Made by a program: the position numbers and the translations under genes. Below the pieces are notes generated by a model. It saw only the letters and a list, made by a program, of their open reading frames with translations. It made no database searches and was not told the DNA's origin. From NCBI GenBank assembly GCA_964645535.1, contig CAZYCQ010000021.1, positions 1 through 47,875 of the forward strand: a stretch of DNA of 47,875 nt, read 5' to 3'. This stretch comes from an uncultured archaeon (GTDB lineage Archaea > Asgardarchaeota > Heimdallarchaeia > Heimdallarchaeales > Kariarchaeaceae). This document shows positions 29,887-46,716 of this stretch, in pieces. The number at the start of each line of letters is the position of its first letter. Within the stretch, counting starts at the first letter, position 1.

Positions 29887-31335
29887 ATGGTTGAATTGAA
29901 AAGAGTAAGCAATCACATTTGGGAAATTCCAGTGGATACTAGGGCAGATATGAATGTTCCAGTCCATATCTATTCTTCCGAACGATTGTTGAAAGATCTG
30001 GATGAAGGTGTCATCGAACAAGGTGTGAATGTCGCTACTCTTCCAGGTTTAGTGAAGAAGGTTTCAGTCATGCCAGATGGCCATTGGGGCTACGGCTTTC
30101 CAATCGGAGGAGTCGCTGCCATGGATGTCGACGAAGGTGTGATTTCACCAGGAGGTATTGGGTTTGATATCAATTGTGGAATGAGATTGATTAGAACAAA
30201 TCTCACTTATGAAGATGTTAAGCCTAAATTAAAAGAACTTGTTGATGAACTTTTCAAAGCAGTCCCGACAGGGGTTGGAACTAAAGGTATCCATCCCTTG
30301 AAAGATCGGGAATTTGATGAGGTAATGAAATATGGGATTGATTGGGTGATTGAAAATGATCTTGGTTGGAAGGAGGACAAACAGTTCATGGAAGAGCAGG
30401 GTGTAATCAAAGGGGCAAAACCGGAATTGATTTCACAAAAAGCACGATCAAGAGGGAGAAACCAACTCGGAACCCTCGGATCAGGGAACCATTTCCTCGA
30501 AATTCAGGTTGCCCAACCAGAAAACATTCATGACAAAGAGACTGCAAAGGCATTTGGAGTAGACATTGACAATCAGGTCGTAATCATGATCCATTGTGGA
30601 TCAAGGGGCTTTGGCCATCAAGTTGCTTCGGAACATCTGAGAGTTTTCCTTGAGGCAATGCCAAGGTATGGCATTAAAATATTGGATAAAGAATTGGCAG
30701 CTGCCCCAATCAAATCAAGGGAAGGTGAGGAATATTTTGCCTCAATGGCCGCAGCCGCAAATATGGCCTTTGCAAATCGTGCAATCATAATGCATGAAAC
30801 ACGAAAAGTGTTTTCAAAAGTGTTTGGCCAAGATCCTGAAGACCTCGGAATGCGGCTTACTTATGATGTCTGTCATAACATTGCCAAATTTGAAGAACAT
30901 GTAGTTGATGATGAAAAACGTGAGGTACTTGTCCATCGTAAAGGGGCAACTCGTGCCTTTGGCCCACATCATCCTGATCTTGCAGATGCATACAAACCAT
31001 ATGGCCAACCTGTGATTATTGGTGGCAGTATGGAAACTGGATCCTATATTCTTGCAGGAACAGAGGCATCCATGCATGAGGCATTTGGAAGTTCTGCCCA
31101 TGGATCTGGAAGAACTATGAGCAGAAGCAAAGCCAAAAAGCAAATCACCGGTCAAGAACTCTATGAACAGATGCTTGAGAAGGGCATTTATGTCAGAGGG
31201 GCATCATGGAAAGGACTTGCTGAAGAAGCTGGATTTGCCTACAAGAACTTATCTGAGGTTGTTATGGCCTGTGAAGGTGGAAACCTTGCACGACCAATTG
31301 TTCAATTACGTCCAATTGGCAATATCAAAGGTTAA
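29887..31335 (+). CDS. rtcB: tRNA-splicing ligase RtcB
   Basis: MPDGHWGYGFPIGG, DINCG, GSGNHF, HCGSRG, CHN, HRKGAT, HGSGR. Confidence 0.98.
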   Translation: MVELKRVSNHIWEIPVDTRADMNVPVHIYSSERLLKDLDEGVIEQGVNVATLPGLVKKVSVMPDGHWGYGFPIGGVAAMDVDEGVISPGGIGFDINCGMRLIRTNLTYEDVKPKLKELVDELFKAVPTGVGTKGIHPLKDREFDEVMKYGIDWVIENDLGWKEDKQFMEEQGVIKGAKPELISQKARSRGRNQLGTLGSGNHFLEIQVAQPENIHDKETAKAFGVDIDNQVVIMIHCGSRGFGHQVASEHLRVFLEAMPRYGIKILDKELAAAPIKSREGEEYFASMAAAANMAFANRAIIMHETRKVFSKVFGQDPEDLGMRLTYDVCHNIAKFEEHVVDDEKREVLVHRKGATRAFGPHHPDLADAYKPYGQPVIIGGSMETGSYILAGTEASMHEAFGSSAHGSGRTMSRSKAKKQITGQELYEQMLEKGIYVRGASWKGLAEEAGFAYKNLSEVVMACEGGNLARPIVQLRPIGNIKG

Positions 31336-32276
31336 TCTCCCCATTCTATTCCCATAGTTCCCATAGAAAATCCCAGACTTGTTCCACTAACAAGGATTTT
31401 TGATCCCTTTTTAATTAATCCATTCTCCAGTCCATAGTCCAATTGGAAGAGTAGGTCATTTGTTCCCATATGCGGGACTTGTCTGAGGCATTCAATTCCT
31501 GTCTTTTCCAAGGGGAATTTCATCTGATCAAGCACCATTCGAGTAGCGGCATATGTTGAACAACTGATTGCTATGAAGTCAATATCTTTGGGATATGTTT
31601 TCATTGCCAAACAGGCTTTTCTCATGTGGTTTGCAAATGTTTTGACCATGTATTCTGAAAGTTCCTTTCCTTTTTGCAAATTGGCCAGTTGGTATTTGGC
31701 TTGGTTGTTCAGAATAAACATATCTCTGAAATAAGGGTTGGTGCTGATCTCCACATATTTGACCTTGTTTCCATGTTCTCCTTTTGAAAAAGCAAAAGAA
31801 CCAATCGAATCTGCGAAAATGCAATTACCGTCTGAGCAATTGTCAGTATACTGTGTTGTCATCTGCACTGACCCCACTATGATATTATTTACTTCTGGAT
31901 GAATAAAATGGGTTCCTGCAATTTGGGCCGCAAGAATTACTGAGGCACAGCCCAACGAGAAATCAAACCCAAATCCCTCGGTCTTAGGAAATGCGGCCAT
32001 GGTTACGGGGCTTGCTCCTTCTGGATGCCTATCAATGCCATTGTGTATCCCCAAAAAACCTTGGATGTCATCCCCTGTCAATCCTGCCATTTCTGCTGTT
32101 TTCTGCACTTCCTTGATTAGAATTCTATCCCATTGGTGGTCATCGGAGTACACAAATGTTGCAGGTACGGGATTTCTCTTCAAAACATTTTTGGGTAAAT
32201 CCAATTCGTCAATTGGGATTTTTTTGTCACCTTTGTTGAACGACCACCCTGAAAGAAGCAAATTATCAAACTTCAT
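31332..32276 (-). CDS. 3-oxoacyl-ACP synthase III (FabH/KAS III)-like thiolase-fold enzyme, atypical active site
   Basis: FDFSLGCAS (catalytic Cys), IFAD, DIDFIAISCS (His of HQAN absent), HMGTND (in place of GNT), GTSLGFSMG; start ATG 32276 or TTG 32315. Confidence 0.8.
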   Translation of the reverse strand: MKFDNLLLSGWSFNKGDKKIPIDELDLPKNVLKRNPVPATFVYSDDHQWDRILIKEVQKTAEMAGLTGDDIQGFLGIHNGIDRHPEGASPVTMAAFPKTEGFGFDFSLGCASVILAAQIAGTHFIHPEVNNIIVGSVQMTTQYTDNCSDGNCIFADSIGSFAFSKGEHGNKVKYVEISTNPYFRDMFILNNQAKYQLANLQKGKELSEYMVKTFANHMRKACLAMKTYPKDIDFIAISCSTYAATRMVLDQMKFPLEKTGIECLRQVPHMGTNDLLFQLDYGLENGLIKKGSKILVSGTSLGFSMGTMGIEWGD

Positions 32277-32446
32277 AACAACTATGTCCAATTCTCGGTG
32301 TGGCTTCAAGAACATTCCTGTTTGAAACAGGGGGTTTCTGTGTTATATCTGTGTAAAACTTAAATCGCTTAACATTTGCATCAAAGTCATTTAGGGAGTG
32401 AGCTCCAGATGAAACAATTTTTGTACCCTCCCTTGAACGATGAACC

Positions 32447-45873: not shown

Positions 45874-45924
45874 TACGATAAAGTAACATCGAAGCAAATA
45901 TTAAGGGATTGTCAAAGCTAAATT

Positions 45925-46716
45925 ATGATCGATTTAAGTGGAAAACGGGCAATCGTTTTTGGAGTGGCTTCTGAAGAAAGCATTGCATGGGCCATTACAA
46001 GATGGTTGGCAAAGGCAGGTGCGAAAATAACCCTCTCCTATCAAAAAAGATTCCGATCCCGAATCTACTCTCTCACAAAAGATGCTGATTTCATAGAAGG
46101 GATGTATGAATGTGATGTGGCATTCGATGACCAAGTTCGTGATTTTTTTGCTAATCTTGAAGGCAAATTCGACATGGTTGTGCATGCCATCGGATATGCA
46201 CCAGCTTCTGCGCTGAGTAAACCGATCATATATACTTCAGAGGAGGATTTCAATACCGCCATGGTGATTTCTGCATACTCATTGCAACGGATTGTCCGGC
46301 ACGCCATGCGAGTTCTCAATCCACAAAGCGCCTTTGTTACCTTGACATATTTAGGTGCAGTGCGTGTTGTACCCGGATACCGGATTATGGGTGTGGCAAA
46401 GGCGGCACTAGAAGCATTTGTCCGAGAACTTTCCGTGAATATCGGTCTTGCAGGACACAGAATCAATGCGATCTCTTCAGGTCCCATCAAAACATTGGCT
46501 GCAAGCCATGTCCCTGGATTTGATAATATCCTTGGTTATATGAAACATGCCTCCCCACTCAGAAGAAATGTTGTTCAGGATGATGTGGCAAAAGCAGCTC
46601 TATTTCTCCTCAGTGATCTTGCAAGCGGTATAACTGGGCAGACGATCTATGTTGACACCGGTTTCTCTAGTGTAGCACTTCCAGCTGACATTGATAAATT
46701 GAGGTTTGATGATTAG
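45925..46716 (+). CDS. fabI: Enoyl-ACP reductase (FabI type)
   Basis: GVASEESIAWAI, HAIGYAP, ISAYS, LTYLG, Y-x2-MGVAKAALE, NAISSGPIKTLA, ITGQTIYVDTG. Confidence 0.95.
   Translation: MIDLSGKRAIVFGVASEESIAWAITRWLAKAGAKITLSYQKRFRSRIYSLTKDADFIEGMYECDVAFDDQVRDFFANLEGKFDMVVHAIGYAPASALSKPIIYTSEEDFNTAMVISAYSLQRIVRHAMRVLNPQSAFVTLTYLGAVRVVPGYRIMGVAKAALEAFVRELSVNIGLAGHRINAISSGPIKTLAASHVPGFDNILGYMKHASPLRRNVVQDDVAKAALFLLSDLASGITGQTIYVDTGFSSVALPADIDKLRFDD

Follow-up and report, generated by a model that had tools for sequence, protein, structure and literature searches.

The window, a stretch of 47,875 nucleotides, is the entire 47.9-kb contig CAZYCQ010000021.1 of a 3.62-Mb metagenome-assembled genome (MAG; assembly GCA_964645535.1, 89% complete, 1% contaminated) from an uncultured archaeon of the Kariarchaeaceae, Heimdallarchaeia (hereafter the host genome and host family). 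It carries, in order, rtcB, a β-ketoacyl-ACP synthase III (KAS III)-like gene, accC, the gene of a biotin carboxyl carrier protein (BCCP), a carboxyltransferase (CT) gene, a megasynthase gene, fabI and archease. The megasynthase is one 3204-aa chain with the domain order KS1-AT-KS2-ACPx4-KR-DH-PPTase (ketosynthase, KS; acyltransferase, AT; acyl carrier protein, ACP; ketoreductase, KR; dehydratase, DH; phosphopantetheinyl transferase, PPTase), and the cluster is probably, as judged from sequence, an archaeal variant of the Pfa-like Type R family that acts as an iterative fatty-acid synthase (FAS). The genes named by the initial annotation all lie where it had placed them, as seen by domain and family profile matches, including the flanking rtcB and archease with stop overlaps of 4 bp at both ends (31332-31335 and 46713-46716). 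The features are as follows.

29887..31335, + strand: rtcB, left flank (PF01139; same neighbour in G001-G003 and L203)
31332..32315, - strand: KAS III-fold protein with Cys110-His269-Asp274, candidate chain-releasing acyltransferase/hydrolase (PF08541)
32447..33925, + strand: accC, biotin carboxylase (Pfam Biotin_carb_N/CPSase_L_D2/Biotin_carb_C; best NCBIfam PRK08654)
33927..34517, + strand: BCCP with an EAMKM motif (PF00364)
34594..36165, + strand: acyl-CoA carboxyltransferase of the PccB/MmdA type (PF01039, E 1.5e-200; TIGR01117 under cut-off)
36259..45873, + strand: Type R Pfa-like megasynthase, 3204 aa (3202 from the ATG at 36265; TIGR02813 1119 bits, cut-off 1010)
36328..37719, + strand: KS1, Cys232-His366-His406, invariant in about 244 homologues
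38125..39093, + strand: AT with GHSLG Ser719, Arg744 and AAFH824, a malonyl-type signature from established AT motifs
39421..40956, + strand: KS2, Cys1309-His1457-His1497 intact (Cys in 236/236 aligned homologues)
41167..41301, + strand: degenerate ACP-like segment with Pro at the attachment site (20 bits versus about 110 for true ACPs)
41428..42534, + strand: four tandem ACPs, each DLGID-T-VKQA, with Thr1758/1854/1954/2054 (ACC codons at 41530, 41818, 42118 and 42418)
42589..42753, + strand: second degenerate ACP-like segment with Lys at the attachment site (24 bits)
43342..44118, + strand: KR, Lys2516/Ser2540/Tyr2553/Asn2557 (PF08659; conserved in 188 homologues)
44326..45168, + strand: polyketide synthase (PKS)-type DH, His2722/Glu2895 (PF21089 and PF14765; residues invariant)
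45256..45870, + strand: fused Sfp-type PPTase, Asp3106/Glu3108/Lys3147/Glu3148 (PF01648; conserved in 113 homologues)
45925..46716, + strand: FabI-type enoyl reductase (ER), predicted to act in trans, with a YRIMGVAK motif (PF13561; FabI NCBIfams under cut-off)
46713..47141, - strand: archease, right flank (PF01951; same neighbour in G001-G003 and L203)

The cluster is real and long resident in its host, and a chimeric origin is excluded: four other assemblies keep the gene order from rtcB to archease, namely three congeneric MAGs (G001, G002 and G003) and an independent 631-kb Logan contig; the synteny check that had been proposed for other Asgard genomes comes out in favor of the locus. The GC content of the cluster is 41.9% versus 41.3% for the genome, and its tetranucleotide distance stands at the 40th percentile among 163 genome windows. 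An Asgard host, as first suggested, is borne out by an uS2 of the archaeal/eukaryotic type, by L7Ae and by ipk on the same contig; mvk and the archaeal ipk, claimed for the same organism, both exceed their NCBIfam cut-offs. The nearest named loci are from Ca. Heimdallarchaeota (72-86% identity in KS1), and proteins labelled Kariarchaeaceae sit within the host-family clade. A promoter and terminator scan of the locus gives chance-level results with a bacterial model on an archaeal host. The host genome has a second BC/BCCP/carboxyltransferase set scattered on contigs C87, C4 and C3, and the carboxylase of the cluster therefore looks dedicated. The birA gene of the host is on contig C36; in Asgard loci, birA and the carboxylase genes travel with the synthase.

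The catalytic residues of every megasynthase domain are conserved (110-245 homologues aligned per domain), and the full set for a completely reducing elongation cycle, which the initial annotation had listed, is present and intact. The malonyl-type GHSLG and xAFH signature of the AT is found in 240/240 homologues and, read from established motifs, predicts malonyl specificity. KS2 has 3808 homologue clusters at E<=1e-50 and no other match within the host genome; as its Cys-His-His triad is intact, a role as chain-length factor (CLF) is rejected. Among PDB structures, the PPTase domain weakly matches Sfp and AASDHPPT. The CT gene is immediately 5' of the megasynthase gene in nearly all mapped Asgard loci. 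A FabA-like isomerase domain is missing from the megasynthase, and PfaB, PfaD and PfaC (KS-CLF and FabA-like DH/isomerase) are missing from the cluster and from its recurring neighbours. Because the DH is PKS-type and there is no FabA-like isomerase, the product is more probably a saturated chain than a polyunsaturated fatty acid (PUFA), by analogy with established PUFA-synthase chemistry. De novo acyl-chain synthesis remains the best reading of this gene set, as was first proposed, and the synthase very probably makes acyl chains.

In alignments with ACPs of solved structure, all four ACPs have Thr in place of the Ser that bears phosphopantetheine, which the initial annotation had overlooked. 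Characterised carrier proteins use Ser for attachment, and the Ser that marks canonical ACP and peptidyl carrier protein (PCP) carriers is lacking from these four. Across the family, the attachment residue is Thr in 538 and Ser in 16 of 554 distinct intact domains, with no other residue, as retrieved by a carrier profile seeded on Thr/Ser motifs and hence biased towards Thr/Ser at this site. All Thr codons are in use at the attachment site, and degenerate ACP copies drift to other residues. Ser is back in at least three separate Asgard branches, and a Ser carrier is found beside Thr carriers in one H. endolithica chain. As the PPTase is fused and intact and the megasynthase ACPs are the only PF00550 matches in the host genome, modification of the Thr would be the simplest reading of these carriers.

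Type R secondary lipid synthases are described by Shulse & Allen 2011 (PMC3098273) as a single PfaA homologue ordered KS-MAT-CLF-ACP(3-6)-KR (MAT, malonyl acyltransferase) with a PPTase downstream and often acetyl-CoA carboxylase (ACC) genes; the same text credits relatives of the Pfa-like kind with the chains of heterocyst glycolipids and phenolic lipids. The synthase of the window is assigned to Type R by its architecture and host range and not by comparison with the 2011 proteins themselves. The likeness includes the KS-AT-KS-like-ACPx4-KR order, a PPTase, ACC genes and relatives in Chloroflexota/Acidobacteriota. KS1 groups with Chloroflexota/Acidobacteriota proteins of the same architecture versus Pfa-like outgroups with a support of 100, in a set that is without the Roseiflexus and Koribacter proteins. 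By contrast with Type R as outlined in that text, the host is archaeal, a DH is present, the PPTase is fused at the C-terminus instead of encoded downstream (it is a separate gene in Chloroploca), the genes for reduction and release vary among lineages, and the position labelled CLF in 2011 holds a KS with an intact Cys-His-His triad. Thr carriers are likewise a difference, as none are mentioned for the 2011 proteins in the available text (PMC3098273).

The PfaA of PUFA synthases shares the KS-AT-tandem ACP-KR order, and the match to TIGR02813 passes the cut-off (1119 versus 1010); however, the window's protein has an extra KS between AT and ACPs, Thr carriers, and FabI rather than PfaD. As PfaB/PfaC, CLF and a FabA-like DH/isomerase are all absent here, a PUFA product is unlikely. 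Eukaryotic type I FAS is similar in its multidomain iterative logic, and the fused PPTase recalls fungal FAS alpha (a weak match, E 5e-4); the order is different, as animal FAS is KS-MAT-DH-ER-KR-ACP-TE (TE, thioesterase) and fungal FAS is two-chain. The best mammalian-type FAS match, 8vf7, has an E of 7e-66 over the KS versus 5e-158 for bacterial PKS matches, and these comparisons give no sign of ancestry to eukaryotic FAS; the KS tree covers archaeal and bacterial sequences. Archaea seem to be without FAS I or a complete FAS II, and nearly all are without ACP (2024 preprint); an ACP-independent pathway of Sulfolobus has de novo archaeal acyl synthesis in common with the window's cluster (bioRxiv 10.1101/2024.07.05.601840). 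A PUFA-like PKS of one heimdallarchaeal MAG from Shark Bay mats is mentioned in passing by Chen et al. 2020 (PMC7472256), with KS domains nearest to PUFA synthases and no architecture, distribution or mechanism given, and is probably of the same family. The ester-lipid genes of Heimdallarchaeum are discussed by Wu et al. 2022 without mention of a polyketide synthase. The synthase is not unique, given its place in the bacterial/archaeal Type R family and the 2020 mention; no earlier description of the Thr carriers, the overall architecture or the clade-wide conservation was found in the open literature.

The KAS III-like protein (residues numbered from the ATG at 32276) has an AlphaFold pLDDT of 95, and its top Foldseek matches are FabH (template modelling score, TM, 0.85). 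The KAS III fold and catalytic Cys of FabH are present, whereas His244 and Asn274 are not (SCST stands in place of HQAN, and PH in place of GN), a loss that the initial annotation had also overlooked; a FabH primer role is rejected as the Cys-His-Asn triad is lacking. Cys110, His269 and Asp274 are invariant in 27 KAS III-like homologues. This Cys-His-Asp arrangement, with Asp five past His, is that of ChlB3/CerJ, exemplified by Cys113-His296-Asp301 of the acyltransferase/hydrolase ChlB3 (PMC9573744). Similarity to these enzymes is otherwise very low (CerJ, E 2e-3 over the C-terminal part only).

The accessory genes form two kits. Outside the host family, the kit is birA, CT and a megasynthase with a fused FabK/NMO-type reductase, together with an α/β-hydrolase, BCCP and accC. 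Host-family clusters lack both the fused reductase and this hydrolase and have FabI and the KAS III-like gene instead. The fabI gene is present in 10/12 host-family genomes and 0/71 other genomes of the class; a reductase is always supplied, either as a fused domain or as FabI, in complementary lineages. The KAS III-like gene is likewise in 10/12 host-family genomes, and no other family of the class has a copy at >50% identity. The α/β-hydrolase is in 28/31 genomes of family f2 and 9/12 of f7 (39/47 in the other families together) but in 1/12 of the host family, and this lone genome (G004) is without the KAS III-like gene. Based on this near mutual exclusion and the ChlB3-like triad spacing, the KAS III-like protein probably off-loads the chain rather than primes it; as the exchange with the hydrolase is essentially one event, it is merely suggestive of a release role. 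The initial remark that no thioesterase is present is true of this locus but does not extend to other Asgard copies, where the α/β-hydrolase is found and the KAS III-like gene is its apparent replacement. The gene is divergent in the host genome, G001 and G002, co-oriented with accC in G003 (L098:14398-15348), and located between CT and megasynthase in G006 and G011, the latter also with a different adjoining α/β-hydrolase. Bacterial Type R clusters (L044, L050, L082 and about 30 others) have an acyl-CoA dehydrogenase gene directly 5' and the carboxylase 3', and those of Acidobacteriota have further conserved genes that resemble electron transfer flavoprotein (ETF) subunits by their sequence starts. 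The upstream acyl-CoA dehydrogenase is a possible third route to enoyl reduction.

With carriers called by a KS1 match at E<=1e-40, the synthase is found in 53/59 genomes of families f1-f4 and f7 (Kari/Heimdall/Gerd-type), where f7 is taken by elimination among the clades of Eme et al. to be Gerdarchaeales. Two carriers are circular, H. endolithica (G020) and H. aukensis (G015), another is a streamlined 1.4-Mb genome (G010), and all six non-carriers are <88% complete. Of 400 Asgard genomes, no others carry it except 15 Lokiarchaeia (of about 160), one of them with a fragment at a contig end. The KS1 search finds the synthase in 0/24 Hodarchaeales genomes (f5 by uS2 cluster names, and f6 grouped by inference) and in neither of the single-contig genomes taken as MK-D1 (G142) and L. 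ossiferum (G137). Relatives are in 15/21 genomes of one class of Thermoplasmatota and in the bacterial Myxococcota, Chloroflexota, Acidobacteriota and Actinomycetota (52-59% identity in KS1). In H. aukensis (L096:999-17045) the megasynthase is broken into pieces of 1506 and 2653 aa, KS1-AT occurs twice, and duplicate copies of the PPTase tail, hydrolase and BCCP lie on either side of an unrelated 195-aa gene; misassembly or tandem duplication may be the cause. L023, P0017/P0020, P0150, P0172 and P0196, labelled Proteobacteria, Pacearchaeota, Zixibacteria, Bathyarchaeia and Thorarchaeota versus a Thermoplasmatota/heimdallarchaeal placement, are probably mislabelled bins. Hodarchaeales have a stand-alone 83-aa ACP-like frame, a FabF-like gene (G047) and a distinct KAS III-like family with GHNGQND (loci G057:C1:2728564-2728749, L192:1149-2393 and L154-L157 together), possibly parts of another acyl pathway.

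In a mixture-model tree of KS1, AT and KS2, with sampling seeded by the window's protein and with uneven sequence composition, the Asgard sequences form one clade (SH-aLRT 99), as do all archaeal sequences (99), the latter in effect at a polytomy with two bacterial clades; a larger FastTree agrees. The Asgard families are monophyletic, and the Loki copies are nested inside the heimdallarchaeal copies. As monophyly of Heimdallarchaeia is also rejected (p-AU 6e-5), the trees indicate transfer of the synthase from Heimdallarchaeia to Lokiarchaeia; a bacterial origin is likely since the outgroups are all bacterial. Eukaryotes arose within the broad group to which the host belongs, with Hodarchaeales as their proposed sister group (Eme et al. 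2023). With the synthase found in 0/24 Hodarchaeales genomes and an architecture unlike that of animal or fungal FAS, the cluster is linked to the eukaryotic lipid transition only indirectly. Of the bearing on this transition that was initially proposed, an Asgard acyl-synthesis set remains, but descent of eukaryotic FAS from the window's synthase is not plausible.

The acyltransferases that were to be sought in the genome are present, as is a G3P source: the host genome encodes GlpK, PlsY and three PlsC-family proteins, as well as a short FakA-like kinase, two DegV proteins and BirA; PlsX and GpsA are not found in it. The carrying clade has PlsY and DegV/FakB in 59/59 genomes, but in Hodarchaeales their matches are weak or patchy. 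In f2 and f7, DegV/FakB are expanded (3-24 matches per genome), PlsY-like proteins number up to 11 and FakA-like proteins are short (312-330 aa); fakA-like, degV and plsY are contiguous in G072 (e.g., L229:5778-8560, G072:C6), and in Heimdallarchaeum the cluster has a plsY paralogue as a neighbour. The distribution of PlsC does not follow that of the synthase, and its use as a marker is rejected. Geranylgeranylglyceryl phosphate synthase (GGGPS, PF01884) is matched in 21/24 Hodarchaeales versus one strong match among 59 carriers. That the synthase replaces the first ether bond is nonetheless rejected by the Lokiarchaeia test, in which GGGPS is kept in 12/12 carriers of the main Loki family (also a point against the membrane-lipid scheme) and missing from 8 non-carriers in Prometheoarchaeaceae, and by MK-D1, which has no GGGPS match yet probable ether lipids. 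As the host genome (L220:2593-3432, contig C59; 44 bits versus a cut-off of 113) and G003 have an orthologous divergent GGGP-family gene, weak members may have escaped detection in other genomes; one Hodarchaeales version scanned is likewise far under the cut-off. In family f19 (including G142, 4,324,194 bp, and G137, 6.0 Mb) PF01884 GGGPS is not matched in 11/14 Prometheoarchaeaceae-type genomes, which, given the probable ether lipids of MK-D1, suggests an as yet unrecognised enzyme for the first ether bond.

The cluster is proposed to encode a self-contained iterative type I FAS. The three-subunit carboxylase would form malonyl-CoA, and the fused PPTase would arm the tandem carriers, most likely on threonine. 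The AT would load malonyl, the two KS domains would condense and probably split the labor between priming or short and long elongation, and KR, DH and the separate FabI would complete each cycle to yield saturated acyl chains. Release of the chain from the carrier, by hydrolysis or transfer, would fall to the KAS III-fold Cys-His-Asp protein. The free chains would most likely be converted to acyl-phosphates by FakA/B-like proteins and passed to PlsY and enzymes of the PlsC family, so that glycerolipids with ester or mixed ether/ester linkages would form alongside isoprenoid lipids. Entry of the chains into membrane glycerolipids has about an even chance, and the whole scheme from synthase to membrane is as open to doubt as to acceptance. 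The wider proposal, that a major branch of Heimdallarchaeia (Kariarchaeaceae, Heimdallarchaeaceae and probably Gerdarchaeales) synthesises fatty acids itself on carriers with Thr-linked phosphopantetheine and uses FakAB-PlsY(-PlsC) to form ester or hybrid lipids, is tentative and somewhat short of an even chance.

Several points weigh against this scheme. The host genome keeps an EgsA-like glycerol-1-phosphate (G1P) dehydrogenase, digeranylgeranylglyceryl phosphate synthase (DGGGPS)-like UbiA proteins and CarS, and PlsX is found in none of five genomes. Harpocratesius repetitus (G134) carries the synthase with no PlsY match, the PF01553 acyltransferase is in 0/43 genomes of f2 and f7, lineages that have the synthase, and Hodarchaeales have PF01553 without the synthase. 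FakAB-PlsY can equally serve scavenged fatty acids, and essentially a single evolutionary event underlies the co-distribution of synthase and lipid genes in Heimdallarchaeia. FabF/FabZ-like genes are retained in five bacterial hosts; the synthase is thus accessory in these five, and Type R as the primary FAS of bacterial hosts is rejected. Type R is known from the bacteria Roseiflexus, Koribacter, Solibacter and Elusimicrobium with no characterised product (PMC3098273). Less probable than membrane lipid formation is a specialised secondary-lipid synthase, in which a long or partly reduced chain is moved by the Cys-His-Asp protein to a sugar, amine or protein acceptor (to form an envelope glycolipid, anchor or signal) and not to bulk phospholipid. 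The glycolipid and phenolic-lipid products of Pfa-like relatives (per the same text, PMC3098273), the FAS II kept by bacterial hosts, the two intact KS domains, a ChlB3/CerJ-type triad typical of acyl-transfer enzymes, and the patchy distribution in Lokiarchaeia (15 of about 160) with absence from 24 Hodarchaeales genomes are consistent with such a role; near-universal retention in five families, including the streamlined G010, the plain α/β-hydrolase with most Asgard copies, and the lack of a recurring tailoring, glycosyltransferase or export gene among the neighbours argue against it.

A Pks13-like elongase/condensase, in which the PccB-type carboxylase activates a longer acyl-CoA and KS2 joins or extends imported chains, is unlikely. 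The PccB/MmdA-type CT, the lack of a starter AT or true FabH, the acyl-CoA dehydrogenase 5' of many bacterial clusters and the abundant DegV fatty-acid-binding proteins would fit this role, but the malonyl-type AT signature is universal (240/240), the full KR-DH-ER set and tandem ACPs suit iterative synthesis, and no acyl-AMP ligase recurs in the clusters. It is very improbable that the Thr carriers are unmodifiable and the enzyme is inactive or uses another carrier or CoA. Characterised carriers use Ser, and no precedent for phosphopantetheine on Thr was found in the open literature, which also counts against the proposed scheme; however, the restriction to Thr/Ser in 554 intact domains with all four Thr codons used, the drift of degenerate copies, the recurrence of Ser in at least three branches and beside Thr in one chain, the fused and conserved PPTase, and the lack of any other ACP in the genome argue against this reading. 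A bacterial contig or chimeric MAG join, which the 52-59% KS1 identity of bacterial relatives might suggest, is hardly credible and is rejected: both borders are kept across four independent assemblies, carriers include circular genomes, the families are monophyletic, the composition is native, and the contig has archaeal uS2, L7Ae and ipk. Iterative acyl-chain synthesis remains the preferred reading of the cluster.

Elsewhere in the window, five open reading frames at 683-5344 (165-371 aa) are without a Pfam match in a region of strong A/T skew (+0.19, then about -0.27). These are followed by a GH5 glycosyl hydrolase (6628-8439), a chemoreceptor (8440-9612), a 1405-aa subtilase (10411-14628) and two small GTPases (9769-10338 and 15988-16557), the first of which is Ras-family by Pfam.

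What PlsY/PlsC do in Asgards is named as an open question in the literature. The locus provides a candidate acyl source for these enzymes and renders the mixed-membrane question testable, as a single cluster is open to expression and Heimdallarchaeum and Harpocratesius have been enriched in culture. The distribution shows that Asgards can acquire acyl-chain synthesis and does not show inheritance of this enzyme by eukaryotes; the finding matters for Asgard membrane chemistry and carrier-protein biochemistry, and not as a direct tie to eukaryotic FAS. The cofactor seems to be placed on threonine across a family that numbers thousands of synthases. If the wider proposal is true, the heimdallarchaeal carriers of the synthase would be natural mixed-membrane archaea with an undescribed form of phosphopantetheine modification.

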